From an uncultured Bacillota bacterium (lineage in GTDB: Bacteria > Bacillota_I > Bacilli_A > RF39 > UBA660): a stretch of DNA of 64,000 nucleotides. The notes under the pieces were generated by a model. The model did no database searches, was not told the origin of the DNA, and saw only the letters and a list, made by a program, of their open reading frames with translations. The position numbers and the translations under genes are program-made. Position 1 is the first letter of the stretch, and each line of letters begins with the position of its first letter. The stretch spans positions 17,348 to 81,347 of the forward strand of contig CANSAJ010000001.1 in the NCBI GenBank assembly GCA_947644695.1, read 5' to 3'. Positions 1,937-56,730 of this stretch are shown piece after piece.

Positions 1937-2097
1937 TATTCATACTCCTTGTTTAGTTCTTTTTTTACTTCTTCTACTTCAGTGTTGATTAAATTATTTC
2001 TAAATGCATAAGCAGATAGAAGCGATACAATTAGAAGTACAAAGACTATTATAAAAGAGTATATTACTGCCATTGATATGAAACCATCTTTTTTCAT
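1936..2097 (-). CDS. Small (53 aa) pilin-like membrane protein (ComGG/ComGF-like N-terminus), not in the supplied ORF track
   Basis: Manual translation of the minus strand gives MKKDGFISMAVIYSFIIVFVLLIVSLLSAYAFRNNLINTEVEEVKKELNKEYE. It has a KDGF-hydrophobic start like ComGG. Its stop overlaps the ATG of the next pilin gene. Confidence 0.35.
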   Translation of the reverse strand: MKKDGFISMAVIYSFIIVFVLLIVSLLSAYAFRNNLINTEVEEVKKELNKEYE

Positions 2098-2399
2098 ATT
2101 CTCACCTACTATAGAATTATAGCATAAAAAGATTAAATAAGAAAGATTAGTGCAAAGAAAAACATATTAGGCTTGTAACCTAATATGAATACTCACATAT
2201 AATATTATGGGTGTTAATATATATGAATAAACTTAATGATATTAAAAATTTATATAAGAATAATAGAAATCTATTTAATATGATTTTACTTATTGTAAAT
2301 GTTGTTTTAATTTTCTGGCAAGCTGTTTTTGCTTTGATTTTACCAAGTCGTGCGAATGTATTTATTTTACTTGTTTTAATATCAGCATTGGTATATCAA

Positions 2400-3993: not shown

Positions 3994-4044
3994 TAAAAAA
4001 CACTCCTTTCTACTTAAATGTATGTAAGAGTGTTGTAATTATGA

Positions 4045-9256: not shown

Positions 9257-10078
9257 TTAATTAATGTTAATGGTTCTTATTTTTTCATCTAGAAAGAAAT
9301 TTCCATTTTCAATTTTAAGTTTTTCATTAATTATTATATTAGTGCTCATAAGGTTTAAGTGTTCTAATAAATCTTTAAGATTAGAATTCTTTTTAGTTTT
9401 TATTACTTGTAAGTTTTGATTTGATTTTACTGTTAAATATATGTAATCTCTTGGTATTCTGTTTTTAAGTTTGTCATAAATATCAATTATATCATATAGA
9501 GAAACTACTGTTTCATTGTTATCACTTTGTGTGAATTCTATTTCTATATTTGGATAAGTTCCCAAATAGCTAAATAGTGTTTGATAGCTTATTATATCTC
9601 TTTTATCTAGTCTTATTTTTATATTTAAATTTTCATGTGTTTGGTCTATTATGTTAAGAGTTTCTAAAATATCAATTATTTTGTCTTTTAGTAAGTATTC
9701 ATCACCTATATCAAATTTATCATCATAAGATATTTTTAAAGTTAAATAATTCTTATAGCTATATTCTTTAGTTAAGTCTTTTATTATTTCTTTGTCTACT
9801 TCATATATGTCATTATTAGATATAGGTCTTTTTAGTACTTTGTCTTTGAAGTCGTTTTCTATAATTAGTACTTTTTTTGGTCCTTCTATTGAATTGATTT
9901 CGCTTAGTCCAAAGGCTTTTCCGGATACAGGGCTAAATACCCGTTTGTTTTCGTATTCAGTTAGATCGTCATTCTTATAAATCATTCCTGTTTCTCGTAA
10001 GTTTATTTTGTCTTTGTCGCTGTATGGGATATATATATAATCATTTGTTAAAAAACTGTTTAATTCTATTTCATTCAT
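9257..10078 (-). CDS. Hypothetical protein (273 aa)
   Basis: Long ORF 45 nt downstream of uvrC on the same strand. No recognisable motif. Confidence 0.4.
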   Translation of the reverse strand: MNEIELNSFLTNDYIYIPYSDKDKINLRETGMIYKNDDLTEYENKRVFSPVSGKAFGLSEINSIEGPKKVLIIENDFKDKVLKRPISNNDIYEVDKEIIKDLTKEYSYKNYLTLKISYDDKFDIGDEYLLKDKIIDILETLNIIDQTHENLNIKIRLDKRDIISYQTLFSYLGTYPNIEIEFTQSDNNETVVSLYDIIDIYDKLKNRIPRDYIYLTVKSNQNLQVIKTKKNSNLKDLLEHLNLMSTNIIINEKLKIENGNFFLDEKIRTININ

Positions 10079-10123
10079 ACTATCACTTCTTTATTATATC
10101 CTATTTTGTATCAAATTTAAATA

Positions 10124-11911
10124 CTATTCTTTGTTCTGTTTGTTATTATTCCAATTTTCTAGATATTCTTTTAGATTTATTGCTACGTTATGTGGAATTA
10201 TTTTTTCTAATTCTTCTATGTCAGCATCACTCATTTTTTTGACACTTCCATATGCTTTGATGAGTTCTTTTTTTCTTGTTTCACCTATTCCTTCTATTTC
10301 ATCTAAGATACTGGAAATGCTTCCTTTGCTTCTTATTTGTCTGTGGTAATTTATTGTAAATCTATGTACTTCATCACTAATTCTTGTAAGTAGATAGAAT
10401 ACATTGCTTTTTTTGTCTATTTTATAAGATATAAGTGTATCACCATCGATTAGTTCACTTAAGGAGTGTTTATCGTCTTTTGCAAGTCCACATACTTTAA
10501 TTTTTAAGTTTAGAGAGTCTAATACACTTTTACAGGCATTTATTTGGTTTATACCACCATCTACTAGAATTAAGTCTGGTATTCTTGTTTTGTTTAGCAA
10601 AGCTTTTTGGTATCTCCTATATATTACTTCCTTCATAGAGCCTACGTCGTCGTTTTGCTCTTTAGATATTTTAAATTTTCTGTAGTCTTTTTTTGAAGGT
10701 GATCCATCTATAAATGTTACCATTCCACTTACTGTGAAAGTGCCAAATAGATTAGAGTTATCAAATGATTCGATTACACTTAGGTTTTCTATTCCAATTA
10801 TTTTTCCTAGTTCTCTAGAGGCGTCAAAGCTTTTTTCGTTGTTTCTGTATTCCATTTCTATGTTGTTTTCTAAGTTTATTTTAGCATTAGTACCTGCTAG
10901 GTCAAATAAGTGTTTTTTCTTACCTTTGGTAGTAGTTGTAACTTTTGTGTCTATTACGCTGTTTAAAAGTTCTATGTCTAGTATGTTAGGTACTATTATT
11001 TCTTTTGGGGTGAGATTTTTTTTGCTGTAGAAGTTTACTATGTAGTATTCTAGTGTTTCTTTTATATCATCTATAAGTGGGAATATGTTTTTTTTGTTTC
11101 CTACTAATTTTCCATTTCTTAAAAAGAATGCGACTATACTTATGTATCCATTTTCATAATAATAATTAAATATATCTCTGTTGATACCATCATTTAATTC
11201 AACTTTTTGGCGTTCGAAAACTACCTTTATATAATCTAGTTCATTCTTTAGTTCTAATGCCACTTCAAAATTTAAGTTATCTGAGTTAATTTGAATCTTT
11301 TCTGTTATTTTGTTTATTAGTATTTCATCATGTCCATTTAATATAGATATTATATCATTTCTTAAATTAGTAGTATCTAAGTCTTTATGTATGCAGTATC
11401 CTAAACATTCCCCAATGTGGTAATATAAGCATTCTTTTTTTGGAGTTTTGTCACATTTTTTAAGAGGATATAGTCTGTTTATTAAGTTTACCAATCTTCT
11501 GGCAGCGTGAACATTTGGATAAGGTCCAAATAGCATTTTATTTTTTTTGTTTATGTTTATTTCTCTTTTTACTACTAAGCTTGGATATTTCTCATTTTTA
11601 AATTCTATGTATGGATAGCTTTTATCGTCTTTTAAAAGTATGTTATATTTTGGGTCATATTTCTTTATTAAGTTTATTTCTAATATAAAAGCTTCTAATT
11701 CACTTGAGGTTACTATGTATTCAAAATCAACTATTTCGCTTACTAGTTTTTTTGTTTTTCCTGTTACTCTTCCATTAAAGTAGCTTTTAAGTCTGTTTTT
11801 TAATATTTTAGCTTTTCCTACATAGATTACTATATTATCTTTATTTTTCATTAGATAACATCCTGGTAGACGTGGGACTAATGATAATTTTTCTTTAAAC
11901 ATAATTAACAC
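10124..11911 (-). CDS. uvrC: Excinuclease ABC subunit C
   Basis: N-terminal GIY-YIG (GCYLMKNKDNIVIYVGKAKILKNRLKSYF), UvrBC-interaction and RNase H-like endonuclease regions, and C-terminal HhH. 595 aa. Confidence 0.93.
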   Translation of the reverse strand: MLIMFKEKLSLVPRLPGCYLMKNKDNIVIYVGKAKILKNRLKSYFNGRVTGKTKKLVSEIVDFEYIVTSSELEAFILEINLIKKYDPKYNILLKDDKSYPYIEFKNEKYPSLVVKREININKKNKMLFGPYPNVHAARRLVNLINRLYPLKKCDKTPKKECLYYHIGECLGYCIHKDLDTTNLRNDIISILNGHDEILINKITEKIQINSDNLNFEVALELKNELDYIKVVFERQKVELNDGINRDIFNYYYENGYISIVAFFLRNGKLVGNKKNIFPLIDDIKETLEYYIVNFYSKKNLTPKEIIVPNILDIELLNSVIDTKVTTTTKGKKKHLFDLAGTNAKINLENNIEMEYRNNEKSFDASRELGKIIGIENLSVIESFDNSNLFGTFTVSGMVTFIDGSPSKKDYRKFKISKEQNDDVGSMKEVIYRRYQKALLNKTRIPDLILVDGGINQINACKSVLDSLNLKIKVCGLAKDDKHSLSELIDGDTLISYKIDKKSNVFYLLTRISDEVHRFTINYHRQIRSKGSISSILDEIEGIGETRKKELIKAYGSVKKMSDADIEELEKIIPHNVAINLKEYLENWNNNKQNKE

Positions 11912-11952
11912 CTACTTTTATTTTATCAAATTTTTAAATTTTAAAAAAGTCT

Positions 11953-12339
11953 TTAACCTTTTTTAGGTATAAGACTTCTTTTTGCTTCTTCTAAAATATT
12001 TTGTTCTAATATAATATCAATTAGACTGGAATCTAAGTTTCTTTCTATTAAAGTACTCAATTCTTGTCTATTAATGGAAGGTTTTATTTGATATTCTAAA
12101 TGAGTTTTATCCCCTTCAGTTTCTATTATATTTTTATATAGTTCTTCTAGTCTTTTTCTATCTTTTGGTCCTGCATTTATTAAAACTCTAAGATCATGAC
12201 TTTTAAATCTTCTTGCTAATAAGGCTTTATATGCTTTTAGTTCAGCTAAGGTGATTTTTTTTGTTTCATGATCTCTTAGTGAAAGATATAATGCACTTAG
12301 AACTAGGTGTTCATAATATAAAGTATATCTTTTTTTCAA
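11953..12339 (-). CDS. Hypothetical protein (128 aa) in the position normally occupied by truB downstream of rbfA
   Basis: ORF with slightly higher GC than its neighbours. No recognised motif. Confidence 0.35.
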   Translation of the reverse strand: MKKRYTLYYEHLVLSALYLSLRDHETKKITLAELKAYKALLARRFKSHDLRVLINAGPKDRKRLEELYKNIIETEGDKTHLEYQIKPSINRQELSTLIERNLDSSLIDIILEQNILEEAKRSLIPKKG

Positions 12340-25570: not shown

Positions 25571-26427
25571 TGAAAAAATTATTTATTTTATTTTTAAGTT
25601 TATTTTTGTTAACTGGTTGTATGGGAAGTAACGACGTTGCTGATGTTAAAACATATGCTACACTTTATCCAATTGAGTTTGCAGCTAAGTATATGTATTC
25701 AGAATTTAGTGATATATCAAATATATATCCAAGTGGTGCTGATATAAATACTTATGAGTTAACTGATAAACAAAAGGATTTATATGCTAATGGAGACGTA
25801 TTTATTTATGCAGGTGTTACAAATGAAGTTAATCTAGCGGTTAGATTTTTAAATACTAATTCTAATTTAAAAATTATAGATGCGACTAAAGGAGTTAATT
25901 ATAGTGTTGGCGTTGAAGAATTGTGGTTAGATCCATCTAATTATTTGATGATAGCTAGAAATATTAAAACTACTTTAAAGGATTATGAAACAAATATTTA
26001 TAATCAAGAGAAGATTGAAAAATTATATAATGAGCTTAAAATTAAGATAAGTGAATTAGATGTAGAGCTTACTATGATGGGTAAAAATGCTTCAAGACAT
26101 TCGATTTTAGTTACAGATGATGCTTTTAGTTATTTGACAAAATATAATATTAATGTTATTTCTTTAGATCCTGATAATTCTAATGTTACTAAGTCTTATA
26201 GTGATGCAAAAAAATTAATCCAATCTGAGGACATAAAATATGTTTATGTGATGAAAGGTCGTCAGATCTCTGAAGATTTAGAAGCCTTTATTGCTAATAA
26301 TAGTTTAGAAAAGTTAGAAATTGATACAATGTATACTTTAAGTGATGAACAAAGAAAAAATAATGTTGATTATTTACAAATCATGAATGATAATATAACA
26401 AAATTAAAAACAGAACTTTTTAGATAG
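25570..26427 (+). CDS. Metal (Zn/Mn)-binding lipoprotein of the ZnuA/TroA substrate-binding family; no cognate ABC permease or ATPase nearby
   Basis: Lipobox LLTGC after MKKLFILFLSLF. ZnuA-like pattern (PSGADINTYELTDKQKDLYANGDVFIYAGV). The likely start is Met at 25570 (RBS GGAG), overlapping the yidD stop. Confidence 0.6.
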   Translation: MKKLFILFLSLFLLTGCMGSNDVADVKTYATLYPIEFAAKYMYSEFSDISNIYPSGADINTYELTDKQKDLYANGDVFIYAGVTNEVNLAVRFLNTNSNLKIIDATKGVNYSVGVEELWLDPSNYLMIARNIKTTLKDYETNIYNQEKIEKLYNELKIKISELDVELTMMGKNASRHSILVTDDAFSYLTKYNINVISLDPDNSNVTKSYSDAKKLIQSEDIKYVYVMKGRQISEDLEAFIANNSLEKLEIDTMYTLSDEQRKNNVDYLQIMNDNITKLKTELFR

Positions 26428-26438
26428 GTTCTGTTTTT
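26406..26438. terminator. Bidirectional hairpin terminator spanning the 3' ends of two convergent genes
   Basis: Perfect 11-bp inverted repeat AAAAACAGAAC-11nt-GTTCTGTTTTT overlapping both stop codons. Confidence 0.45.
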
Positions 26439-27334
26439 TTACTTTGTATTTTATAGTAATAAGTAATTCCTGCTAATATTATTAAAATTGTTAAACCAGA
26501 TATGAATATTATAAATGAAGTATATTTAATTTTATTCACTATTTGTGTAATATAGTTATTTAAATTTATTTTATCATCAATACTATTTATTTCGATGAAA
26601 AGTTCATTGTTTGAAGATACTAAATTAAATAGTTCTTCTAAATTTTTATAATTATTTATTTCCACATTTAAACTTACTACTTCTAAATTATTTCTTTTAT
26701 ATTTATTTATTATATTTTCTGAAAAGTAAAATTCGTAATTTCTATTATTTCCACCTATAATAATTGATTTAACATTCGAGAAATCTTTATCATTTTCTGT
26801 TCCACCGTGTAATACATTCAAATTATCTATTCTTATACCTTTAATTGTCATGCTATATTTAGATTTGTTTTTTTCATTATTAATTCCAATTTCTAAATTA
26901 TTATTAATAATATTTTCATTTTCCAAAAACTTTTTAATAAATACTTTTAATTCATCTTTGTAATTATCAAAATTTGTATTCCCATTTTTTAACCACCTAA
27001 AATATTCGTTACCAAATTTTCCGTTAGTTATAATATTTACAAAATTTATATCTATTATTACTTCATTATTTTGTAATTCTGTTATGCTTTCGTTATTTTC
27101 TGTAAATATTTCATTTCCATTATTAAGAAATGTATTTAAATTTAAAAAATTATCATATACTTGATTGTTGTATATTATTTGACTTTTATAAATATTATTA
27201 TTAATAGAATTATTATCTTCTATTTCTAAAGACGAGAAAAAATCGTTTGTTACTAGCATTGTATATATTTCATTTAAATATTTCATTTTAAACTCTTTAT
27301 ATAAATCATTATAGTCTTTCTTGGCTTTTTTCAT
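26420..27334 (-). CDS. Asn/Ile/Lys-rich protein with C-terminal TM anchor; probable 3' part of a gene split by frameshift
   Basis: 304 aa of low-complexity N-rich sequence with a C-terminal TM (FIIFISGLTILIILAGITYYY). Its 5' end overlaps the upstream ORF by 26 nt in the +1 frame. Confidence 0.4.
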   Translation of the reverse strand: MKKAKKDYNDLYKEFKMKYLNEIYTMLVTNDFFSSLEIEDNNSINNNIYKSQIIYNNQVYDNFLNLNTFLNNGNEIFTENNESITELQNNEVIIDINFVNIITNGKFGNEYFRWLKNGNTNFDNYKDELKVFIKKFLENENIINNNLEIGINNEKNKSKYSMTIKGIRIDNLNVLHGGTENDKDFSNVKSIIIGGNNRNYEFYFSENIINKYKRNNLEVVSLNVEINNYKNLEELFNLVSSNNELFIEINSIDDKINLNNYITQIVNKIKYTSFIIFISGLTILIILAGITYYYKIQSKKTEPI

Positions 27335-27977
27335 GTGGAATTGATTTTAATATATCATATTTTTCTAAATTTTCATCAATTATTCCAGAAATTACTAAAT
27401 ATGTTTTGCCAATTTTAATTTTTTTGTTTGAGTTTACGATTTCTTCATAATTATTAGGTTTATAAAATTTTATATTTCCTATATCTTCTGTATATTCTTC
27501 TATTCCCTTTTCGATAATAGTATCTGCCAAGATTTTATGTATAATAACTTCATTTTTATTTTGTGGTATTTTCCCAATTATGTTTATTTTTTCAAATTCA
27601 CTTTCACTTAAAACTTGGAATTGAATTTCTGAATTAGATATTCCATCAAAAAATGCATTACCTAAGTTTTCACTTGCATATCCACTCATATTCAATCTAT
27701 AATAGAAATTATTTTCAAGAATTTTGATATTTTCTTTATAATTTAAAGAAGTATTTTCGAAGATTCTTTGTAAATCATTATTTAAAGATATAGAATCTTC
27801 ATCAGAGGCATTTCTAATTGTTATACTTTTATTTGTATTTCTAATATTAATATAGTTTTCATATAATAAAATCTTTTTCGCCAAGAATGAAAGAAAAAAA
27901 GTTAATATTGAAATTATAATTAACAAAATTGAAATGCTTATAATTATCTTTTTAATTTTATTTTTTGATTTAATCAT
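27309..27977 (-). CDS. Asn-rich protein with N-terminal signal-anchor; probable 5' part of the same frameshifted gene
   Basis: N-terminal TM (IIISISILLIIISILTFFL). It ends inside a T6/A6 tract (27326..27331). Removing one base there fuses it in frame with the downstream ORF. Confidence 0.4.
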   Translation of the reverse strand: MIKSKNKIKKIIISISILLIIISILTFFLSFLAKKILLYENYINIRNTNKSITIRNASDEDSISLNNDLQRIFENTSLNYKENIKILENNFYYRLNMSGYASENLGNAFFDGISNSEIQFQVLSESEFEKINIIGKIPQNKNEVIIHKILADTIIEKGIEEYTEDIGNIKFYKPNNYEEIVNSNKKIKIGKTYLVISGIIDENLEKYDILKSIPHEKSQERL

Positions 27978-28115: not shown

Positions 28116-30155
28116 TTAATTTTCAGCATTACTACAAGCTGTACTCAATGTATCTACTGTGTATGGATTATCGCTAGTTCCATCTCCACTTTTCCACATT
28201 ACGCATGATTTTAGGGATAAGACTGGGCGAACTGCAAAAGATTCATATCTACGATTCCAACCTAAATTACCAAACTTATAGGAATTTGTTACACAAAAGA
28301 CCATTGAATAATAAGCATCAATAACATCTCTCCAGAAAAAATCATATGGAGTCATTGTCCACCAATTGCTAGAACCAGTTACAGACGTTCCTTTTGCATT
28401 TAAATAGAAATAGGATTTTGAATTTTCATTAAGCTTACCCCCAGCAAAAGCTACTTCATCTGCTGTCATCAAAGCTACTGGCATATCCTTTAATGCTCCA
28501 TTTCCTGTGCTTGTACTTCCAGTAAACTTATCTGCTATATCTGCTCCATTTGTTCCTGTATACAAACTTCCACTTGCATTATTTCCACATTTATATGATG
28601 GAGAATTAGACTCTAATCTATATCTTGCTACAAAATCGAATGTTGCTGAGGTACTATATCCTGAATTTGCTCGATCATTACAATAGATTGCTGTTCTACT
28701 CACATATTCATTATAACTTTTTTTTATTGTTTTATTATACCATATGTCTATTACTTCCTTAATTGTAGATTTTGTGGTGTTATTTCTATTATTTGCTAAA
28801 TTTCCTGCAGTTCCATACATGTATCCTACATATATAGGATTAGGACCATCATAAACAGATGATATTTTATTATATACACTATATTCTATATATCCGACTT
28901 CTGTATTCACATCTGAACCTACATATAATAAACGTACACTTCCATCTTCATTTATACGAATTATTCTCCAATATAGTCCTGCAAAATATACCCAGTTATC
29001 TAATGCATTACCTGAAAAGTAGTATACTGTTTTTCCGCCTTCAGTCCATTTTCCACTTACTGTATATAATGTCTTTGTATTATTATCTTGAAATACTCCA
29101 CTATTTAAATTTGGTCTTGCTCCTGGTCTTGTTGTGTGATCTGCTAGGATTTGATCCTTTAATAAAGGTATCTTTTTCAATATTACTGTACAAATTTGAG
29201 ATGTTCTAATATTCCCAATTGATAGCGTTCCGCCATTTAGACTATGACTAGCTCCTCCTGTACATGTAACAGTTGGATTATTTAAGGTATAACCTGTACT
29301 AGCTGTTATTGTGAATTCTCCTGATTCACCATGGGCTACCATTACATTACTTGGCTTGATTGTTCCTCCTGTTATATTCATAGTTAAGTTATAATTTAGC
29401 TTCTCTGTAGTTATTCTACATGTCTGTGATGACGTTATCTTACTTATTGTTACTTTCTCTCCCTCTATACTTCCTACTGCTCCTTCATCACATACTATTT
29501 CATTATCTTTTAATCTATATCCTTTATCGAGCTTATATGTATATGTTAATGTTCCATTCTTTATCGTTTCCTGGGGATTTAGACTTGTTATAGTACCATT
29601 CTCCATCTCTAGTGTTACTTTATACTTTATATTAGGATTTATTGTACCTTCTGTAATATATAGTGTTCCATTAAACTCTTTTCCCATATCTATACTTTGA
29701 TCTTCTGGTGAATCTTTATATATAAATTCTATTGTATACTCATGAATATCTTTTGGATTTATATCTATATCATATGCTAGTATTATATCTTCTGGTGTAC
29801 TACTCTTTGGTATATCTGAGTATTCTGTCATATTATATCCATTACTTGAGGTTATCTTATATTGCAAATACCCTTCTGTTACAAATGTATTAATTAAATC
29901 TTTAAATATTATATTATAATTAAATACTTCATCACTTTCATTTTTTACACTAAATGTTTTTGTCTCTTTCCATCCTGGTATTATCTCACTACTTGATAGT
30001 TCATTATTATCTGTAAAGAGTATCCTTATATCTCTTGATGATATAGTTATATCTTTTTTATTTCCTCCTACTGTTCCACTAAAGTATGCATAGCTCATTC
30101 CTACACATAATAATAATGTCATTACTATTCCATATACTACAAACTTCTTATTCAT
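28116..30155 (-). CDS. Large secreted protein with SipW-cognate-type signal peptide, TasA/camelysin-like N-terminal domain, Cys-containing Ig-like repeats and an uncharacterised Trp/Cys-rich C-terminal domain
   Basis: The N-terminus ...LLCVGMSYAYFSG resembles the TasA/CalY signal class (..GTxAxFSD). IIPGWKETKTFSVKNESDEVF parallels TasA LKPGDKLTKDFQFENNGSL. There are two ~50-aa repeats with conserved Cys pairs (...SSQTCRIT.. / ..TSQICTV..). SD AGGAGAG precedes the ATG. Confidence 0.5.
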   Translation of the reverse strand: MNKKFVVYGIVMTLLLCVGMSYAYFSGTVGGNKKDITISSRDIRILFTDNNELSSSEIIPGWKETKTFSVKNESDEVFNYNIIFKDLINTFVTEGYLQYKITSSNGYNMTEYSDIPKSSTPEDIILAYDIDINPKDIHEYTIEFIYKDSPEDQSIDMGKEFNGTLYITEGTINPNIKYKVTLEMENGTITSLNPQETIKNGTLTYTYKLDKGYRLKDNEIVCDEGAVGSIEGEKVTISKITSSQTCRITTEKLNYNLTMNITGGTIKPSNVMVAHGESGEFTITASTGYTLNNPTVTCTGGASHSLNGGTLSIGNIRTSQICTVILKKIPLLKDQILADHTTRPGARPNLNSGVFQDNNTKTLYTVSGKWTEGGKTVYYFSGNALDNWVYFAGLYWRIIRINEDGSVRLLYVGSDVNTEVGYIEYSVYNKISSVYDGPNPIYVGYMYGTAGNLANNRNNTTKSTIKEVIDIWYNKTIKKSYNEYVSRTAIYCNDRANSGYSTSATFDFVARYRLESNSPSYKCGNNASGSLYTGTNGADIADKFTGSTSTGNGALKDMPVALMTADEVAFAGGKLNENSKSYFYLNAKGTSVTGSSNWWTMTPYDFFWRDVIDAYYSMVFCVTNSYKFGNLGWNRRYESFAVRPVLSLKSCVMWKSGDGTSDNPYTVDTLSTACSNAEN

Positions 30156-32380: not shown

Positions 32381-32827
32381 TTATATTTCTTTACTATCTA
32401 AAATTATTGTTACTGGACCATCATTATATATTTCAAGTTTCATATCACTTCCAAAAATACCAGTTTCAGTTTTGATGTTTAATTCTTTTAATCTTTTATT
32501 CATGTAATCATAAAGATTTGATGCATCTCTTGGATTTAAAGCATCTTTAAAACTTGGTCGTCTTCCATTTTGACAATTTGCATATAAAGTGAATTGACTT
32601 ATATTTAGTATACTTCCATTAATATCTATAAGACTTAAGTTCATTTTTTCATTTTCATCTTCAAATATTCTTAGGTTTATAATTTTATCTATCATTTTAT
32701 TTACAGTATTCTCTGTATCTCCATCAGTAAAACTTGATAAAAGTACTAATCCACTATCTATACTACCATGGATAGTTCCATTTATTGTAACTTTACTTTT
32801 TTTGCTTCTTTGTAATACTACTTTCAT
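32381..32827 (-). CDS. dtd: D-aminoacyl-tRNA deacylase
   Basis: MKVVLQRS..., SQFTLYA and NDGPVT motifs. 148 aa. Immediately downstream of rel as in Bacillus. Confidence 0.9.
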   Translation of the reverse strand: MKVVLQRSKKSKVTINGTIHGSIDSGLVLLSSFTDGDTENTVNKMIDKIINLRIFEDENEKMNLSLIDINGSILNISQFTLYANCQNGRRPSFKDALNPRDASNLYDYMNKRLKELNIKTETGIFGSDMKLEIYNDGPVTIILDSKEI

Positions 32828-32831: not shown

Positions 32832-34961
32832 TTACCTTTCTACTTTATTTATAAAGTTTAGTGTTTCTAATTCATTTATAAATTGATTAAGATTTTCTAT
32901 ATTTTTAACTTTACAAATTAAATTATATACTTCTTCATTTTTTATTATTCCTTTATTTTCTATTGATGTAACTGTAATATTTAATTTTGTTGCTAGAGTT
33001 ATTATATTTATCAAATTGTCGTTTGAAGAGTCTATGTATATCATAATAGAAGTTGTATATTTGTCCATTATTTTATCATTCCATTCAGCTTCTATTATTC
33101 TTTCATTTGATAGATCAACATTTTTACAAGTTTTTCTATGAATTTTTACTCCATTGCCTTTTGAAATAAATCCTACTATGTCATCACCTAAGACTGGATT
33201 ACAACAAGTTGCTAGAGATGTCAATATATCTCCAAAACCTGCGATTAGAACTTTCCCTTTTTCTGTTTGTTTTATTATGTTCGAGTTTGCTAATAATTTA
33301 TCAATAGTATCATCTTTTTTAGGCATGATTATTTCTAGAATTTTATTAATTATTGTATGAGGTGTATATTTAAGTGTTGCGATTCCAATATGTACATCGT
33401 CTAAATTTTCAGTTTTTGTATATTCTAGAATGCATGATATGGTATCATTAGTGAAAATTTCTTTTTCATTTAATTTTCTCTTCTTTAATTCTTCATTAAG
33501 CAGTTCTTTTCCAGTTTCTATTAATTTACTTTTTTCTTTTTTATGAAAATAAGATTTTATTCTACTTTTTGCTCCATCTGTCTTTACAAATTTTAGCCAA
33601 GATTTATTTGGACTTTTTCCTTTTTGAGTTTTTAAATCAACTATATCTCCATCTTGAAGTTTGTAGTTTAAACTCACTGATTTTCCATTTACTAAAGCAC
33701 AGTCACAAGTGTTTCCTACTTCTGAATGAATTTTATAAGCAAAGTCTACAGGTGTGCTATCTATTGGAAGTTCTAATATATCTCCTTTAGGTGTAAAAAC
33801 ATAAATTTGTTCTTTATTTAAATGAGAGTTTAAATCTTTAAAGAAATCTATATTTCCTTCCATATCATTAACTTCAATAAGTGTTCTAAAAGCAGCGAGT
33901 TTATTCTCTAATTCGTTTGTTTTAGAACCATCTATTTTTTCTTTATAGCTCCAGTGGGATGCTACTCCATGTTCTGCAATTTCATTCATTTCATGAGTTC
34001 TTATTTGTACTTCATATATACGTTCATCTACTCCAAATACGGAAGTATGTAGACTTTGATACATATTATTTTTTGGGTTTGCTATGTAATCTTTAAATCT
34101 TTTAGGTATAGGTCTATATTTTGAATGTATTAATCCAACTGCTAAGTAACATTCTTCAACTGTATTAACTAAAAGTCTTAATCCTAGTAAGTCATAAATT
34201 TCTTCCCATTTTTTACCTTTTTTAAGTTTATTATAAATTCCACGTACACTTTTGACTCTATATAAGATTTCAAATTCAATGTTGTGTTCATTTAATATCT
34301 TTATTATTTCGTCTCTCATCTTATGAAGAGAAGAAGTTAATTCTTCTTCGTTTGCACTTATTTTATCCAGTACTTCTTGATAAAGATCTGGGTTTGCTTG
34401 TTTCAAACATAAGTCTTCAAGTTCACTTTTCATCGTCTTAATTCCTAATCTATGAGCGATTGGAATATATACTTTTTCTGTTTCTGATATGATTTCCATC
34501 ACGTGTTTTTTATCATGCTTGTTTACTGTTTTTAAATTATCTAATCTATCAGCAAGTTTGATGAATAAGCTTATTGGATTCTCTGCTAGACCAACTACTA
34601 TTCTTCTGTGTTTTTCTGTATCATTTTCTTTTATTATTTCATTTTTTAAATGGCTTAATCTGCTTATAGAATTAAGGATAATAGCAGTCTCTTCACCAAA
34701 TTCTTGCTCTAATTCTTCATAAGAAATTTTATCCAAAGTTATAGCTTCATGTATTAGAGCACAACCTATTGTTGTGGAGTTCATTTGTAAATCAGCGAGT
34801 ATTTTTGCTACTCTTAAGCTGTGTATTATGTAGTCTTCGCCAGTATCTCTTTTCATACCTTCATAAATTAATTCTGCTTTTTTATAATATTTATTTATAA
34901 GCTTTAATTTATCTTCTGGAAGATATGTTTTTAGTGTGTTTTTTAACTCGCTATATGTCAT
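32832..34961 (-). CDS. relA: RelA/SpoT-homolog (p)ppGpp synthetase with intact synthetase motifs and degenerate HD-hydrolase motifs
   Basis: The synthetase core is intact (DLLGLRLLV, MYQSLHT, EVQIRTHEMNEIAEHGVASHWSYKE). It has TGS and ACT regions. In the hydrolase, the HDxxED motif reads HEAITL, and ADRLHNMRT reads ADRLDNLKT. Confidence 0.9.
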   Translation of the reverse strand: MTYSELKNTLKTYLPEDKLKLINKYYKKAELIYEGMKRDTGEDYIIHSLRVAKILADLQMNSTTIGCALIHEAITLDKISYEELEQEFGEETAIILNSISRLSHLKNEIIKENDTEKHRRIVVGLAENPISLFIKLADRLDNLKTVNKHDKKHVMEIISETEKVYIPIAHRLGIKTMKSELEDLCLKQANPDLYQEVLDKISANEEELTSSLHKMRDEIIKILNEHNIEFEILYRVKSVRGIYNKLKKGKKWEEIYDLLGLRLLVNTVEECYLAVGLIHSKYRPIPKRFKDYIANPKNNMYQSLHTSVFGVDERIYEVQIRTHEMNEIAEHGVASHWSYKEKIDGSKTNELENKLAAFRTLIEVNDMEGNIDFFKDLNSHLNKEQIYVFTPKGDILELPIDSTPVDFAYKIHSEVGNTCDCALVNGKSVSLNYKLQDGDIVDLKTQKGKSPNKSWLKFVKTDGAKSRIKSYFHKKEKSKLIETGKELLNEELKKRKLNEKEIFTNDTISCILEYTKTENLDDVHIGIATLKYTPHTIINKILEIIMPKKDDTIDKLLANSNIIKQTEKGKVLIAGFGDILTSLATCCNPVLGDDIVGFISKGNGVKIHRKTCKNVDLSNERIIEAEWNDKIMDKYTTSIMIYIDSSNDNLINIITLATKLNITVTSIENKGIIKNEEVYNLICKVKNIENLNQFINELETLNFINKVER

Positions 34962-34972: not shown

Positions 34973-37165
34973 TTATGAATTTATTCCTTTTATTAATCTT
35001 TCTTTTATTTCCTTTTCTTCATTGTCTTCTTTTTTAGTTTTTTTTAAATTCTTTATTTCTAGTTTTAGCCATATGTAAGGGGCTATAAGTAATGAACTAA
35101 ATGTTCCTGCTGTTAGTCCAATTAAGACAGTGATATTAAATTCTTTTACTCCGCTTGTATTCATTAGTAATAAGACTATTACTGCTGTTAATGTTGTTAT
35201 AGAAGTTACCATATTTCTTCTAAGGGATAAACTAATGCTTTCGTTTACTAACTTAGTTAATGATTCAGGAGTTTTGTTTTTTTCTAAGTTATATTTATCT
35301 CTTATCATATCGAATACTACAATTGTATCATTTATTGAATAACCTATAATGGTTAGAATACCTGCTATGAATATGAAGTTTATTTCAAATCTAAGTGTTG
35401 CAAATATTGCAATAGTTACTAAAACGTCTGTTAATATAGCTATTATACTTGATATAGCAAATCTGCTTGTAAATCTAATAGCAATATAAATTAGTATAGC
35501 TATGCTAGCAATTATTAGAGATTTTATAGCATTTTTAGTTAAATCTTTTTTTACGATATTACTTATTACTGAAATATCTGACTTATAATTTATTTCATCA
35601 AATTCTTTTTTTAGAGATTTTATTTCTGTTTCTGTTAAAGTATCTTTAATTCTAATATTATATTCATGATCATCTATTTTGTTTATTTCTTCTACTTTAT
35701 AATCGTTAAGTTTTTCTTTTATTAGTTTTTCTTCTATTGCTTTTTCGTTTTTTAGCGAAATTGAACTTCCTCCTTTAAAGTCAATTCCTAGGTTTAATCC
35801 TTTTATAAAAATAAATATAGTTCCAACAATAATAATTAAGCTTACAGTTGTTATGTTAATTAAAGAAGCCTTTTTATAAGATCTTTCTTTTGATTTTTTG
35901 TAGTTTCCTATAAATAGTTTTTCTTTACCATTAAATATTTTACTTTTTATTAAATTATTCATTATAATTCTGTTAAGTAAAATCATAGAAAATGCTGTTA
36001 CAAGTATAGTAAGCATTAGCATAGTTGCAAATCCTTTTACACTACTTTCTCCAAATATAAATAGTATTAATGCTGCGATGAATGTTGTTATATTGGCATC
36101 TATTAAAGACACTAAACTTCTTTTGTTTCCATCAGTATAAGCTTTTTCTAAAGTTTTTCCATTAGATAATTCTTCTTTTATTTTTTCGAGTGTAATGACA
36201 CTAGAGTCTACAGCCATTCCAATACCTAATATTAAAGCTGCAATTCCAGTTAATGTTAGAACTCCATCTATAGCATTAAATAATATAAATACTAAAAGTG
36301 TATAGAATATTAAGCATACTCCACTTATAACTCCACTTAATCTATAGCAAATTATTATTATTAATATAATTATTATAAATGTTATTATACCTGCAATTCC
36401 GATATTTTTAAGTGTATCGTTTCCAAATGAAGAATCTACAGTTTTAGTGCTAATTTCAGTTAACTTTGTTGGCAGGCTGCCAGAATTTATTAAGTCTACA
36501 AGTTCTTGTGCTTCTTCTTCTGTAAAATTTCCTTCTATAATAACATTATCCATAAATCCTTCTGTTACTGCTGCTGCGCTTATGCATTTTTTAGATCCTT
36601 CACATTCGCCTTCTTTGTAAGTGTCGCCTTCTTGGAAATCTAACCATATAGTTATAATTTTATCTGAGCTTTCGCTTATTTTTTTTGTTACTCTATAAAA
36701 TGTATCATTATCTTTAATACTTAGTGCTACAACTGGTTTGTTAGTAGTTCTATTATAATCTAGTTTAGCTCCTGGAGAGTCTAATACATTTGATGTCATT
36801 AGTTCTTCATTAGATGTATTTCTAAATGTTAGTACAGCTGGAGTACTAAGTCTTTTTCTAGCTTCGCTTTCATTAGTAACTCCTGGTAATTTTACTCTTA
36901 TTTTATCTCCTTCAATTGATATTTCTGGTTCACTTACTCCTAAAGTATCAATTCTATTTCTTATAGCTTTGTAAGTATCTTCGGTATCTTTTGTAGTTAC
37001 TTTTTCTTTTTCATTTAAGTTTTCTACTAAATATAAAACTTCAAATCCACCTTTTAAGTCTAATCCAAAATTAATATTATTTATTATAGGTTTTATTAAT
37101 ATTAAACTTCCTAATATTATTGACACTGTAAGTAGTACACTTGTTAAAATTTTTTTGTTTTTCAT
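34973..37165 (-). CDS. secDF: Protein translocase subunit SecDF (fused)
   Basis: 730 aa, two 6-TM bundles with periplasmic-type domains. Firmicute-type fusion. Confidence 0.93.
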   Translation of the reverse strand: MKNKKILTSVLLTVSIILGSLILIKPIINNINFGLDLKGGFEVLYLVENLNEKEKVTTKDTEDTYKAIRNRIDTLGVSEPEISIEGDKIRVKLPGVTNESEARKRLSTPAVLTFRNTSNEELMTSNVLDSPGAKLDYNRTTNKPVVALSIKDNDTFYRVTKKISESSDKIITIWLDFQEGDTYKEGECEGSKKCISAAAVTEGFMDNVIIEGNFTEEEAQELVDLINSGSLPTKLTEISTKTVDSSFGNDTLKNIGIAGIITFIIIILIIIICYRLSGVISGVCLIFYTLLVFILFNAIDGVLTLTGIAALILGIGMAVDSSVITLEKIKEELSNGKTLEKAYTDGNKRSLVSLIDANITTFIAALILFIFGESSVKGFATMLMLTILVTAFSMILLNRIIMNNLIKSKIFNGKEKLFIGNYKKSKERSYKKASLINITTVSLIIIVGTIFIFIKGLNLGIDFKGGSSISLKNEKAIEEKLIKEKLNDYKVEEINKIDDHEYNIRIKDTLTETEIKSLKKEFDEINYKSDISVISNIVKKDLTKNAIKSLIIASIAILIYIAIRFTSRFAISSIIAILTDVLVTIAIFATLRFEINFIFIAGILTIIGYSINDTIVVFDMIRDKYNLEKNKTPESLTKLVNESISLSLRRNMVTSITTLTAVIVLLLMNTSGVKEFNITVLIGLTAGTFSSLLIAPYIWLKLEIKNLKKTKKEDNEEKEIKERLIKGINS

Positions 37166-37577: not shown

Positions 37578-39656
37578 TTATGGAGAATAAGTTTTTATGT
37601 TTAATTTTTTATTTATTTCTATATAAATAGTTCCATCATATGCAGTGTTATAAACTGTTCCATATTTATTTAGTTTATCTACTACTTCTTTATGAGGATG
37701 AGAATATCTATTATTTAGACCAGAACTTATTATGCTTATTTTGGGTTTAATGTATTTTAATAATGAATCACTTGTACTAGTTTTACTTCCATGATGTCCT
37801 ACTTTTAGAATATCTATTTGATTAAATTTATATGTTTTTAAAATACTTTCTTCAGTTTTAATACTAGCGTCTCCAGTTAATAGTAAGCTTATGTTATTTA
37901 TTTTCGCTATTAGGACTATTGAGTCATCATTTTCGTTATTGAATACTTTATTGTTAAGATATTCTAAATAAATATTATCTATTTTTAGAGTTTTAAAATC
38001 TATTATTATTTTATTATTTATTGTTGATTCTATTTTGTTTATATTGCCTTCATTTATGTATATGTTTTCTACTTTGAAATTGTTTATTAAGTTACTTGCT
38101 TCGCCTGCATGATCTGCGTCTCCATGTGTAAGTATTAAGTAATCAATTTTTTTGATACCAAGTTTTCTTAGTAATGGTATAGTTGTATTTTCTATTATGC
38201 TGGATTCTTTTTTTCTTTTCTTCCAACTTTCTTCTTTATATTTTATTTTTCCACCTGTATCAATTAAAACTGTGCTTTTTAAATGAGGGGTTATTATTAG
38301 TATACTGTCACCTTGATTTACGTCTAGAAAATATATTCTAGTATTAGCGTTAAAGTAAGGATTTATTTTCCAATAAAGAATAAGAAATATTATTAATAAA
38401 TAAGTTATTTTATTTTGTTTTTTTATTAGTAGTAAAAGCAATGTGTAGTATATAATACAAGTAACTAAAGATATCTCACTAAAATATATTTTAGTTGGTA
38501 TTTTAGATAAGAATAATGACATATTTTCTAAAATTGATGTTAATGAAGATAAAATTACTTGAAATATAGGAAATATGTACACTATTATAGATAAAGGAAA
38601 TATTATAAAACTAATAAAAGGAACAAATATTAGATTCAGAATTATTCCTAAAGGATTTATATAATTAAAATAATATATAGATAAACCTATGTTACTTATG
38701 AATGATATCATGCTAACTTTTAATAAACCTTTTATGTAGTTTTTGTCATTTATTAATTTTGAAGAAATTATAATAAAATATGTAGTTGTAAATGAAAGTA
38801 TAAAACTCATATTATATATTATAAATGGATTAGTTATAACTAATAGACTAAAGACTAAATAAAGAAGAGATTCAGTTTTAATGTTTAGTTTAAAATATTT
38901 ATTCAATCCTATTAGGAACGATAAGAGACTTGCTCTTAAAATTGATGGACTAAAACCTGTAATAAATGCAAAGAAAATTAGAAATATAAATATTATTATA
39001 TAGGTTTTTAATTCTTTTATTTTAAGCTTTTTAAGAATATTTTTCAGTATAAGGCTAAATATTGTTACATGTAATCCTGATAAAGCAAATAAATGACTAA
39101 TTCCATTTTCTCTGTATGAATTAATTATTTCAGAATTTAAGTATTTAGTTTTTCCTAATATATATGCATATAAGTATTCATTATGTTTTATATTTTCTGT
39201 TCTTTTATAAGCATAGTTTTTTATTTTGTTTAGTGGTGATATTTTTTTATTAGTAAGTTTTATTTCATTTATATTAAGTAAATAATAGATTCGTTCTTTG
39301 TAGAGATATTTTTTATAATTAAATAAGTGAGGTACTGTATTATTTTTGGGAATGCTTAAATCTCCATTTAGTTTTATAGTAATTCCGATTTTTAATTTGT
39401 TTTTATAATATTCTTTTTCTTCTTTTGTTTTTATATAATATGTTCCAAGAATTTTTTCTTTACATTTTAAATCTAATTCCAGCTTATTTCCATCAATATA
39501 GTATTCGTTTAGTGTACAAGTAAAGTCTTTATCGTTTATGTTGTATTTACTTTTATAAATAGGCAGTGATGTTATAATTAAACTAAATATAAGTGTTAAT
39601 ATAGCTAATATAAGAAATGTATATTTATACTGTAATATGGTCTTTAATTTTTTCAT
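37578..39656 (-). CDS. comEC: DNA internalisation competence channel ComEC
   Basis: Polytopic competence domain plus a C-terminal metallo-beta-lactamase domain (LILTHGDADHAG). 692 aa. Overlaps the comEA stop. Confidence 0.9.
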   Translation of the reverse strand: MKKLKTILQYKYTFLILAILTLIFSLIITSLPIYKSKYNINDKDFTCTLNEYYIDGNKLELDLKCKEKILGTYYIKTKEEKEYYKNKLKIGITIKLNGDLSIPKNNTVPHLFNYKKYLYKERIYYLLNINEIKLTNKKISPLNKIKNYAYKRTENIKHNEYLYAYILGKTKYLNSEIINSYRENGISHLFALSGLHVTIFSLILKNILKKLKIKELKTYIIIFIFLIFFAFITGFSPSILRASLLSFLIGLNKYFKLNIKTESLLYLVFSLLVITNPFIIYNMSFILSFTTTYFIIISSKLINDKNYIKGLLKVSMISFISNIGLSIYYFNYINPLGIILNLIFVPFISFIIFPLSIIVYIFPIFQVILSSLTSILENMSLFLSKIPTKIYFSEISLVTCIIYYTLLLLLIKKQNKITYLLIIFLILYWKINPYFNANTRIYFLDVNQGDSILIITPHLKSTVLIDTGGKIKYKEESWKKRKKESSIIENTTIPLLRKLGIKKIDYLILTHGDADHAGEASNLINNFKVENIYINEGNINKIESTINNKIIIDFKTLKIDNIYLEYLNNKVFNNENDDSIVLIAKINNISLLLTGDASIKTEESILKTYKFNQIDILKVGHHGSKTSTSDSLLKYIKPKISIISSGLNNRYSHPHKEVVDKLNKYGTVYNTAYDGTIYIEINKKLNIKTYSP

Positions 39657-40326
39657 AGATGCTTTCTCCGATGCCAGTTACATTTTTAATATCTTCTATA
39701 TTTTTAAATGAGCCAGATTTATTTCTATAATCAATTATGCTTTTTGCTTTACTTTCACCTACTCCATTTAGTGTCATAAGTGTTTCAAGTGAAGCTGTAT
39801 TAATATTCACAAGTGTATTCAACTCAGTATTTTGTTTAGTATCTTCTGTATTCGTTGGCTTTTCTATATTTACAGCATTAGAGATTTCTTCATCTTTATC
39901 TAGACAAGCATCATTTAATGTTTCACAGATAGTATCTTTCTTTTTTATAATTGATTCTATCTCTTCTTTGGAATTTATTATAATTACATTTTCGTCTTTT
40001 AATATTTTGCTTAAATTTATGTATCTAGTTGATGCGTTTTCTAAAAGTCCTCCCGAAGCTTCTATTGCATCAATTACTCTGGAGTTTTCTTTTAATTCAT
40101 ATACTCCTGGATTTTTTATTAATCCTTTAATATCTACTTTTATTGTAAATGAATCTTCTTCTATGTTTGATCTTTTTTCTTGTACTTCAGCAACTATTTC
40201 ATTTTTCTTATATTTATTTTCAATTAGATAAAAAGATGTAAACGCGATTAGAATTGTTATTATAATTATTCCAGTAAATATAATTTGTTTTTTATATTCT
40301 TCTATGTAAACTTGAATTTTTTCCAT
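39625..40326 (-). CDS. comEA: DNA-binding competence protein ComEA
   Basis: N-terminal TM, SLBB-like domain (IKVDIKGLIKNPGVYEL), and C-terminal HhH (INTASLETLMTLNGVGESKAKSIIDYR). Confidence 0.85.
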   Translation of the reverse strand: MEKIQVYIEEYKKQIIFTGIIIITILIAFTSFYLIENKYKKNEIVAEVQEKRSNIEEDSFTIKVDIKGLIKNPGVYELKENSRVIDAIEASGGLLENASTRYINLSKILKDENVIIINSKEEIESIIKKKDTICETLNDACLDKDEEISNAVNIEKPTNTEDTKQNTELNTLVNINTASLETLMTLNGVGESKAKSIIDYRNKSGSFKNIEDIKNVTGIGESIYEKIKDHITV

Positions 40327-43506: not shown

Positions 43507-43968
43507 CTATTTTACAGTTAATGTTCCGCTGCTGCAATCTAATGTAGCTGAACCACTTTTTCCTTCAATTGAATCAAGTCCTAATGTAAATCCTGCATCT
43601 GAACTATCATAGTAATATGTTCCATCAGTTACTTTTAATGTGCTAACATTTCCTGCATCATCAAATGACACATAATATAATAGCTTTTTGTTCTCACTTA
43701 TACTTAATTCGTTATTTCCAGCACCAGATTCTCCAGAATAGCAGTATGGTCCAGGAGTTTCACCTTTCATCATATCAGTTATGTATTCTTGGTCTGCAGC
43801 TTTCCAAATTCTTTGTACTTGTGTTTTGAAAACGTCTTTCTTACCTTGTGTAAATAAATTTAAAATATTTGGTGTGATTAGTAACATTAATATTGCTAAG
43901 ATTGCTATTACGGCTAGTAATTCAACTAAAGTAAAACCTTTTTTATTTAGTCTAGTCATTTTTATCAT
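43507..43968 (-). CDS. Type IV (major) pilin / competence pseudopilin ComGC-like
   Basis: Canonical prepilin N-terminus MIKMTRLNKKG|FTLVELLAVIAILAILMLL. The mature part is Gly/Ser-rich with two Cys. The locally higher GC comes from Gly/Ala codons. Confidence 0.8.
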   Translation of the reverse strand: MIKMTRLNKKGFTLVELLAVIAILAILMLLITPNILNLFTQGKKDVFKTQVQRIWKAADQEYITDMMKGETPGPYCYSGESGAGNNELSISENKKLLYYVSFDDAGNVSTLKVTDGTYYYDSSDAGFTLGLDSIEGKSGSATLDCSSGTLTVK

Positions 43969-55946: not shown

Positions 55947-56456
55947 TTATAATTTAATTTTTACTTTTACTCTATTATATTCATTGCATTTTTCTTCTAA
56001 TAATTTAAAGTTGCAGCATCTTTTCATTATGTTTTCAGGAAGATTATTATTTGTGTAATCAAAATATAGTGCTTTGGCTCTGGTTATTACTAAATTATAG
56101 TTTCTATTTAACCAATAGACTTGAGACTTTAATAAATTACTATAATTTATATCATTTTTATCATTAGTGTTAATTATAGTTATGTTTGAAGATTTTACTG
56201 GCAGCATATTATTATAATTAATCGCTCCTAAGTCACCATTATTTAATCTTAAGAAGTCAATTGTATCATACATTTTTGAATGTTTAGGTTTTGGACTAGA
56301 TAATGGTGCAAAATATAATAATTCATTTACACTAAATAAAATACCCACAAATGGTCTCAACTTTTTATTGTTATGATTATATGGTACACGATTGTCAAAT
56401 TTTCTTAAATAATCACAATAATCTTTATTTATTAATGCTAGTTTTATTTTTTGCAT
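55947..56456 (-). CDS. toxN: Type III toxin ToxN/AbiQ-family endoribonuclease
   Basis: The 169-aa product from the internal Met (MQKIKLALINKDYCDYLRKFDNRVPY...) aligns closely with lactococcal AbiQ (YLKEFDDKVPN; FIGIV...YLAPLTSPKKWH; CNFSLLEEKY). The supplied ORF (to 56525) is extended upstream to an earlier ATG. Confidence 0.85.
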   Translation of the reverse strand: MQKIKLALINKDYCDYLRKFDNRVPYNHNNKKLRPFVGILFSVNELLYFAPLSSPKPKHSKMYDTIDFLRLNNGDLGAINYNNMLPVKSSNITIINTNDKNDINYSNLLKSQVYWLNRNYNLVITRAKALYFDYTNNNLPENIMKRCCNFKLLEEKCNEYNRVKVKIKL

Positions 56457-56512
56457 GTGTTCTCCTTTCTTTGGTTTTTTATAATGTATTTTTTTGATTT
56501 CTGTCAAATAAA

Positions 56513-56540
56513 ACACTAAAGACAAATGTCCTTAGTGTTA
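56513..56540 (-). terminator. Hairpin between antitoxin repeats and toxin gene (intra-operon terminator/attenuator, as in ToxIN loci)
   Basis: AACACTAAGGACA-tt-TGTCTTTAGTGTT, a 13-bp stem with 1 mismatch, followed on the minus strand by TTATTTGA. Confidence 0.4.
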
Positions 56541-56550
56541 CTTTTTTGAT

Positions 56551-56694
56551 TTCCTGTCTCAGCCGGAATCGCTCAACTTTTTTAACTTCCTGTCTCAGCC
56601 GGAATCGCTCAACTTTTTTAATTTCCTGTCTCAGCCGGAATCGCTCAACTTTTTTTATTTCCTGTCTCAGCCGGAATCGCTCAACTTTTTTAAT
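56551..56694 (-). ncRNA. toxI: ToxI/antiQ-like antitoxin RNA: four tandem 36-nt direct repeats
   Basis: Plus-strand unit TTCCTGTCTCAGCCGGAATCGCTCAACTTTTTTAA(C/T) repeated 4 times (one unit is 37 nt). It is GC-richer than the surrounding DNA. It is on the same strand as, and immediately upstream of, the ToxN/AbiQ-like gene. Confidence 0.75.
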
Positions 56695-56730
56695 TTTTAT
56701 TAAATATTACATAATTTCTTATGTAGTCTA

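Follow-up and report, generated by a model that had tools for sequence, protein, structure and literature searches.

Long RelA/SpoT homologues (RSHs) with a dead hydrolase domain were already known, mainly in the form of RelA, a post-duplication enzyme paired with SpoT. RelA of Beta- and Gammaproteobacteria (E. coli, 5iqr) is a long RSH with intact synthetase and ribosome-sensing parts and a hydrolase domain without the HDxxED motif. This pseudo-hydrolase domain has been retained, presumably in a regulatory role (PMC8012599). RshB of Bacteroidetes and some scattered long RSHs are likewise Rel-derived, with an HD domain that diverged in the manner of RelA (Atkinson 2011). Here we describe the rel gene of a 64,000-nucleotide stretch of DNA, hereafter the window, from an uncultured Bacillota bacterium of the order RF39, family UBA660. 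The gene product resembles the bifunctional Rel enzymes of Firmicutes in its six-domain layout, in the RXKD synthetase motif, in loop lengths and in the rel-dtd neighbourhood, and lacks the Glu-Asp (ED) pair of the hydrolase site. With moderate confidence, it is regarded as a Rel that has become synthetase-only, in the manner of RelA but by independent evolution, and the hydrolase domain of which is a putative ligand-binding pseudo-hydrolase.

Six motifs make up the hydrolase site of RSHs, as defined by Bisiak et al. (PMC9293644). The HD1 Arg and the HD6 Asn contact guanine; the HD2 His, the HD3 His-Asp and the HD5 Asp-Arg/Lys serve Mn binding; the HD4 Glu-Asp is the proposed agent of nucleophilic attack. 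In A. baumannii SpoT the hydrolase is inactivated by each of the alanine replacements of E82, D83, Y51 or N147 (PMC9974481). In long RSHs Mn2+ organises the HD site and also stabilises a compact state that opposes synthesis, and loss of Mn binding in RelA was tied by the same authors to loss of the compact state (PMC9974481). A human MESH1 mutant altered at the equivalent of D82 (D66K) has been crystallised with substrate bound (title of PDB 9chy).

Hydrolase-site motifs of the Rel protein

The rel gene spans positions 32832..34961 on the minus strand, stop codon included, and encodes a protein of 709 amino acids. Translation starts at an ATG at 34961, with an AAAGGAG ribosome-binding site 5 nucleotides ahead. 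The assignment is based on the open reading frame (ORF), on Pfam domains, on the score of 561.7 bits for the NCBIfam RelA/SpoT family TIGR00691 (cutoff 499.2), and on the match to B. subtilis Rel (6yxa), the nearest solved structure (phmmer, E = 1.5e-121). HD-type, RelA_SpoT and TGS domains occur in one chain, as expected for the long RSH family. The protein fails the NCBIfam equivalog model for RelA (NF008124, 378.8 bits versus a cutoff of 728), and falls well under the cutoff for the E. coli SpoT equivalog. Bifunctional Firmicutes Rel proteins (B. subtilis 6yxa, S. equisimilis RelSeq 1vj7, S. aureus 7oiw) provide the best matches both in sequence and structure. Compared by Foldseek to Rel N-terminal-domain structures, the catalytic half gives target-normalised template modelling (TM) scores of 0.82-0.85. 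In the AlphaFold 2 (AF2) model the predicted local distance difference test (pLDDT) score is about 90 across residues 1-100. By these comparisons the window protein is classified as a Rel orthologue by descent.

The hydrolase-type domain (Pfam HD_4, E = 6.9e-27; residues 29-174, positions 34440..34877, minus strand) is a predicted pseudo-hydrolase. When aligned to B. subtilis Rel by phmmer, the protein shows no gap over the whole N-terminal hydrolase region; the numbering is offset by +6, and residues H71-E72-A-I-T75-L76 of the query are found opposite H77-D78-V-V-E81-D82 of Rel (HEAITL versus HDVVED). Translation of 34734..34751 (minus strand) and the alignment thus bear out the HDxxED to HEAITL change reported in a first-pass annotation of the window. 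At this site the HD3 His71 is kept and the adjacent Asp is replaced by Glu72, here a putative Mn2+ ligand; the HD4 Glu-Asp is replaced by Thr75-Leu76. As the alignment has no gaps and its flanks are conserved, the pair is not restored by any indel, which settles the re-alignment check that the same annotation had called for.

The other motifs have been preserved. The HD1 Arg38 (34848..34850, minus strand), located through the alignment offset, corresponds to Rel R44, the residue stacking on guanine (PMC9293644). The HD2 His47 (34821..34823, minus strand) corresponds to the Mn ligand H53, and is a His in all the 81 sequences of the clade described below. The DRLDN tract (34536..34550, minus strand) includes the HD5 Asp138-Arg139 (Rel D144-R145) and the HD6 Asn142 (Rel N148). 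The ADRLHN to ADRLDN change, also listed in the first-pass annotation, is a true sequence difference, but no catalytic residue is hit by it, as the equivalents of D144, R145 and N148 are all kept. The altered residue, Asp141 (Rel H147), sits between the functional Asp/Arg and the Asn, and does not correspond to a defined catalytic position. HD1, HD2, HD5 and HD6 are in sum intact, HD3 features a conservative Asp to Glu change, and HD4 alone is lost. Compared to bifunctional Firmicutes Rel, the protein differs in HD3 and HD4 as described, and has lost in addition the invariant residues H39 (Tyr), D134 (Asn), R136 (Ile) and H147 (Asp).

The pattern differs from that of E. coli RelA, in which F-P replaces H77-D78, D-A replaces E81-D82, Glu is found in place of D144 and His in place of N148. 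Both the metal site and the guanine contacts have been lost in E. coli RelA, whereas the metal and guanine residues are kept in the window protein. Similarly, RelA is marked by loss of the whole HDxxED motif and of Mn binding, while only the ED half of the motif is missing here. RelA features an EXDD motif and a longer loop between helices alpha6 and alpha7; the window protein has an RFKD motif and a loop of Rel length, without insertions relative to B. subtilis Rel. Finally, RelA is paired with SpoT; for the window protein, a search of the 64-kb window and of the 10 kb flanking rel on each side in 80 related genomes revealed no partner. The likeness to RelA is thus limited to the predicted synthetase-only condition, and every RelA-specific feature tested identifies the protein, at the level of sequence, as a Rel. 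Its HD4-only loss, with metal and nucleotide pocket predicted to be preserved, is a distinctive signature.

The residues altered in the window protein are the same that have been altered in engineered hydrolases, namely A. baumannii SpoT E82A and D83A and human MESH1 D66K. These are laboratory point mutants; the variant described here arose in nature, and has been fixed and kept throughout the RF39-type clade, as far as sampled.

Distribution and conservation among RF39-type relatives

Relatives of the window protein were collected in two ways. The closest 120 proteins, 60-100% identical, were retrieved from a database of 5.8 billion proteins. In addition, one genome per GTDB species was scanned, and the closest 80 loci, encoding proteins 45-73% identical, were retained; these 80 loci and the window protein form the 81-sequence clade set. 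The HD4 ED pair is present in none of the 120 database homologues and in none of the 80 genome loci. All the 120 database homologues exhibit a motif of the type HE..(T/S/K)L. His-Glu replaces His-Asp at HD3 in 78 of the 80 loci, and in 79 of 81 sequences when the window protein is added. The loci derive from uncultured gut Bacilli, from metagenome-assembled genomes labelled 'Tenericutes' or 'Mycoplasmatota', or from CAG genomes, among which Clostridium sp. CAG:628, CAG:524 and CAG:1000, Coprobacillus sp. CAG:605 and Mycoplasma sp. CAG:776. The members that bear a name fall in the order RF39, in which the genus CAG-628 is assigned to the family UBA660 and CAG-1000 has itself the rank of a family. 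The variant is thus not peculiar to one organism; as the pair is missing in all the 200 related sequences, it is fixed across the sampled clade. Such a fixation points to long-term selection, and not to recent decay.

These data also bear on the trivial explanation that the motif results from misalignment, from a sequencing or assembly error, or from the decay of a pseudogene, to which we assign a negligible probability. An indel hiding the ED pair was ruled out by the gap-free alignment and its conserved flanks. A sequencing error or a pseudogene was ruled out by the finding of the identical protein on an independent contig, and by the 200 concordant homologues. These are independent sequences, obtained in many studies and from many hosts. 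The 709-amino acid ORF is moreover intact and provided with a good ribosome-binding site, and the rest of the protein is strongly conserved.

To serve as outgroup, 150 representatives of distant Rel clusters, at most 45% identical, were taken from a library of sequences clustered at 50% identity. The library was used for the outgroup only, as the nearest match in it was just about 40-45% identical. The clade is apparently missing or oddly represented in this library, while hundreds of members 60-100% identical are found in the other database. The canonical HDxxED motif is found in 135 of the 150 distant representatives. In a neighbour-joining tree of the catalytic half, a simple distance tree and not a tested phylogeny, the 81 sequences and 2 other representatives lacking ED form one clade, and no canonical sequence falls inside it. 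The tree is consistent with a single ancestral loss of the ED pair in the lineage. Relative to RelA, the variant would be of independent origin, within Bacilli.

Degenerate HD3/HD4 motifs were also found in 11 of the 146 representatives that the tree places outside the clade (P0133, P0172, P0175, P0201, P0209, P0214, P0222, P0228, P0237, P0243 and P0248; examples are HERN, HEKF and HGKN). Some of these may correspond to further independent losses of the hydrolase, as judged from their motifs. Degenerate HD motifs are therefore not extremely rare among long RSHs, and the surprise raised by the RF39 variant is tempered. Two members of the clade, L075 (rel at 10001..12055) and L081 (rel at 2029..4014), have kept His-Asp at HD3, and lack ED (HDAIMNG and HDAVMDG, respectively). 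Two clade sequences do not fit ADRLxN, and have Glu at N148 and Asn at T151. They are apparently the same L075 and L081, a match inferred and not read from single sequences; provided that it holds, the pattern in the two would be one of more RelA-like decay. Searches of the literature on RF39 and stringent response, on RSHs in Tenericutes or Mollicutes, and on Mycoplasma RelA did not reveal descriptions of the variant; the coverage was incomplete, and an earlier description may exist.

The positions of the HD domain are unequally conserved in the 81 sequences. In Rel numbering, H53, H77, K141, D144 and R145 are found in 100% of them. R44 is found in 94%, the remainder being mostly alignment gaps, and E78, N148 and T151 in 98, 96 and 86%, respectively. 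The claim that metal-binding and catalytic residues have been replaced stands accordingly for the Glu-Asp pair, and not for H53, H77 and D144, which are invariant, nor for D78, replaced by a Glu that is nearly as well conserved. The two HD4 positions, in contrast to the retained ones, drift: position 81 hosts Thr (40 sequences), Ser (17), Asn (15) or other residues (9), and position 82 Leu (57), Asn (12), Glu (4), Asp (3), His (3) or other residues (2). Of the seven retained active-site residues, six are placed among the 38 best-conserved columns of the HD domain, which has 166 columns in all (hypergeometric p = 6e-4). Apart from E78, the HD domains of the clade have gained no conserved acidic or His residue.

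When the clade is ordered by identity to the window protein, decay of the HD domain is, by comparison of the groups, a stepwise process. The deepest group, 45-48% identical, has lost ED alone, and carries D78E. In the group at least 50% identical further canonical invariants are gone (H39Y, D134N, and R136 changed to Ala, Lys or Ile). In the group at least 60% identical, which includes the window protein, H147D is found in 23 of 23 sequences, and is confined to this subclade. Pairwise identity in the HD domain, divided by that in the synthetase domain, gives 0.85 for the clade and 1.11 for canonical Rel. In the clade, conservation is thus relatively weaker in the HD than in the synthetase domain, and in canonical Rel the opposite holds.

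Predicted activity of the protein

The other parts of the protein look intact. The RelA_SpoT (p)ppGpp synthetase domain (Pfam E = 3.4e-38) corresponds to residues 235-342 (33936..34259, minus strand). The synthetase motif strings described as intact in the first-pass annotation are all present in the translation. Moreover, at each of the 17 synthetase positions checked, the conserved residue is present in 80-81 of the 81 clade sequences; the Mg ligands D264 and E323, Tyr308 of the G-loop and the RXKD motif are all covered by these positions. The RFKD motif of the window protein is of the RXKD type, which is typical of bifunctional enzymes, EXDD being typical of RelA (PMC8801413). The TGS domain (residues 386-445; 33627..33806, minus strand; Pfam E = 1.8e-20) carries His412, which lies opposite the 'dfsyrihseign' tract of B. 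subtilis Rel, is equivalent to the His that senses the CCA end of tRNA, and is invariant. A conserved-cysteine, or zinc-finger (RIS), region (CCNP...H...C; residues 586-612; 33126..33206, minus strand) has been recognized by its invariant Cys and His residues and by PF28438 (RelA_RIS), a precomputed Pfam match on exactly the same protein; C587, H608 and C612 are invariant, and C586 nearly so. The C-terminal domain (residues ~633-709; 32835..33065, minus strand) is ACT/RRM-like according to the alignment with E. coli RelA and to the AF2 fold, which is beta-alpha-beta-beta-alpha-beta with pLDDT 77-91; ACT_4 is recorded in some close homologues. The alignment with E. coli RelA extends to residue 699, and the C-terminal regulatory half, with its helical domain, is therefore complete. 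Since the synthetase and the ribosome/tRNA-sensing half are intact, (p)ppGpp production would be expected on starved ribosomes, as for Rel and RelA.

The combination of a lost ED pair with intact synthetase and regulatory parts makes a synthetase-only, RelA-like enzyme the likeliest reading. In hydrolysing enzymes the HD4 Glu-Asp pair and Mn2+ would activate the water molecule that cuts the 3'-pyrophosphate, and hydrolysis would not take place once the pair is lost. By analogy with homologues, (p)ppGpp hydrolysis by the HD domain has most likely been abolished or very strongly reduced. The notion of a hydrolase-dead Rel put forward in the first-pass annotation is to this extent favoured as a prediction, both by the ED loss and by the SpoT alanine mutants (PMC9974481); the damage to the pocket had been overstated. 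The pocket has kept His, His, Glu (in place of Asp) and Asp as putative metal ligands, the Arg and Asn predicted to contact guanine, and the Lys and Arg likely to hold the pyrophosphate. The HD domain may therefore still bind Mn2+, and probably the alarmone too; the MESH1 D66K crystal indicates that such sites can bind substrate without turnover. The domain would persist as a structural or allosteric module that holds the synthetase off away from the ribosome, and product feedback through the pocket would be possible. The role of Mn2+ in ordering the HD site and in stabilising the synthetase-off state provides a reason for keeping the ligands in the absence of catalysis. The pocket would have been retained, in other words, for its control over the conformation of the enzyme, and hence over the synthetase. 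The ligand binding and the regulatory role, as well as the loss of activity, are proposed on the basis of what is known of homologous enzymes.

Several observations weigh against a synthetase-only enzyme. The full set of metal- and substrate-binding residues is kept, as in an enzyme that is still turning over, slowly or by the use of another general base, and the loss could be compensated by the Glu at position 78, which is strictly conserved. The RXKD motif is of the bifunctional type, and the loops have the length seen in Rel and not in RelA. A synthetase without hydrolase would furthermore be physiologically awkward, if this were the sole RSH in the genome; E. coli relA+ does not tolerate the loss of SpoT (PMC8012599).

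Some of these observations are accommodated by an alternative, in which the HD domain has kept its (p)ppGpp hydrolase activity, maybe at a slower rate, relying on Mn-bound water and on Glu72 or another base, and the enzyme is bifunctional. Five of the six HD motifs either are intact or carry a conservative change, with 94-100% conservation over a deep divergence, and the Glu at position 78, fixed in 98% of the sequences, looks selected rather than drifting. The RXKD motif and the Rel-like loops fit bifunctional enzymes, and so do the normal rel locus and the failure to detect a second RSH in the regions searched. We nonetheless judge a working hydrolase unlikely. One Ala at either ED residue kills hydrolysis by SpoT, and both residues are non-acidic here. 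Apart from E78, the HD domain has no clade-specific conserved acidic or His residue, and a replacement catalytic residue is not fixed at the HD4 positions, which vary freely. The HD domain is also less conserved than the synthetase, the reverse of what is seen in canonical Rel.

A pocket with conserved metal- and base-binding residues and an altered catalytic half could alternatively have been repurposed for another ligand or reaction, for example for another nucleotide, as MESH1 with NADPH. RSH-type HD domains acting on other substrates are found among the structural matches (MESH1-NADPH, MESH1-PAPS, a (p)ppApp hydrolase). The known alternative-substrate enzymes retain however the ED pair, the guanine-specific contacts R44, N148 and T151 are unchanged in the window protein, and the sequence gives no hint of a new specificity. 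Repurposing is for these reasons held to be very improbable.

If a synthetase-only Rel is indeed encoded in the window, hydrolysis appears to have been lost independently in the original Rel of a Firmicutes-derived lineage common in human and animal guts. Ligand binding and catalysis would be naturally separated in the HD domain, and the protein would provide a test case for current models that place the compact synthetase-off state under the control of Mn2+ and the HD site. The way these uncultured bacteria clear (p)ppGpp would become a question, and automatic annotation of similar proteins as 'bifunctional' should be viewed with caution.

Genomic setting of rel and other features of the window

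The rel gene is one of several core genes that follow each other on the minus strand, namely a homologue of a post-transcriptional regulator, secDF, rel, dtd, ruvA and ruvB. The fused secDF gene (34973..37165, minus strand; identified by ORF and sequence) lies upstream of rel, and ends 11 nucleotides before the rel start codon. The dtd gene (32381..32827, minus strand), encoding a D-aminoacyl-tRNA deacylase (ORF; Pfam Tyr_Deacylase on an identical contig), starts 4 nucleotides past the rel stop codon. No terminator-like site was found on the minus strand between secDF, rel and dtd. In a scan of the operon for promoters and terminators, the number of sites did not exceed chance expectation for DNA so rich in AT. 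Rel and dtd are probably co-transcribed. We take the rel-dtd pairing to be the usual arrangement in Firmicutes (apt-relA-dtd in B. subtilis), and the order secDF...rel-dtd to be presumably typical of Bacilli. This position indicates that the gene is the original rel of the lineage and not an extra copy. RshB differs in this respect, being a second copy beside a canonical Rel, while the window gene resides at the ancestral rel locus, and is apparently the original copy.

How the alarmone is removed is a distinct issue, compatible with a dead HD domain. Hydrolysis may have been taken over, by subfunctionalisation, by a separate enzyme encoded elsewhere, either a small alarmone hydrolase, a second, SpoT-like long RSH, or a Nudix-type enzyme. 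The well-studied hydrolase-dead long RSHs all coexist with a hydrolase, as RelA with SpoT (PMC9974481). Small alarmone hydrolases are found in some Firmicutes (Atkinson 2011, tables), and Nudix enzymes are able to degrade alarmones (PMC9293644). When the six-frame ORFs of the 64-kb window and of 81 rel loci, extending 10 kb on either side of rel in the 80 genomes, were searched with hidden Markov models of the HD and synthetase domains, only the rel genes were detected, which speaks weakly against a second HD_4- or synthetase-type gene. In a 2011 survey, which predates RF39 genomes, Mollicutes had 0-1 RSH per genome (PMC3153485). The location of rel at the secDF-rel-dtd place, that of an original copy and not of a duplicate, similarly does not favour a division of labour between two RSHs. 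We regard the takeover by a separate hydrolase as possible, on the doubtful side.

A more radical hypothesis is that in the RF39 order a single long RSH makes (p)ppGpp and cannot hydrolyse it, the genome encoding no RSH-type hydrolase at all. Clearance of the alarmone would then rely on dilution or on some enzyme other than an RSH, and the disabled Mn/guanine pocket would act as a product sensor shutting the synthetase off. In these terms the hypothesis seems to us improbable. If true, this would be the first natural loss of hydrolysis by a Rel without gene duplication, and would concern gut bacteria with reduced genomes.

The remaining part of the window is an ordinary Bacilli core genome, with a G+C content of about 26%. 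A few other features deserve mention. A ToxIN-type module, belonging to the type III toxin-antitoxin systems (55947..56696, minus strand), is placed between polC and a gene encoding a Snf2-family helicase. A 192-amino acid ORF in the module matches Pfam ToxN_toxin (E = 1.9e-46). Directly upstream, and on the same strand, 4.4 copies of a 36-nucleotide tandem repeat (95% matches; 56540..56696) resemble a ToxI RNA antitoxin array. The adjoining Snf2-family helicase (1055 amino acids; 56793..59960, minus strand) has its best NCBIfam similarity to the 'pilus expression-regulating Snf2 family helicase', at 507 bits, far under the cutoff of 1100, and a weaker similarity to the helicases ZorD and DrmD of defence systems. 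The ToxIN module and the helicase may form a small defence islet.

Three consecutive ORFs on the minus strand, spanning 28116..30155 (679 amino acids), 27309..27977 (222 amino acids) and 26420..27334 (304 amino acids), have no Pfam or NCBIfam matches. The 679-amino acid protein has a hydrophobic N-terminal segment, and looks secreted or surface-exposed. A prokaryotic N-terminal methylation motif is found in two small ORFs (1010..1468 and 43507..43968, minus strand), the products of which are similar to pilins or competence pseudopilins. The window also hosts comEC (37578..39656) and comEA (39625..40326); together with the pilin-like ORFs, the two genes suggest that the DNA-uptake machinery has been retained in a reduced genome.

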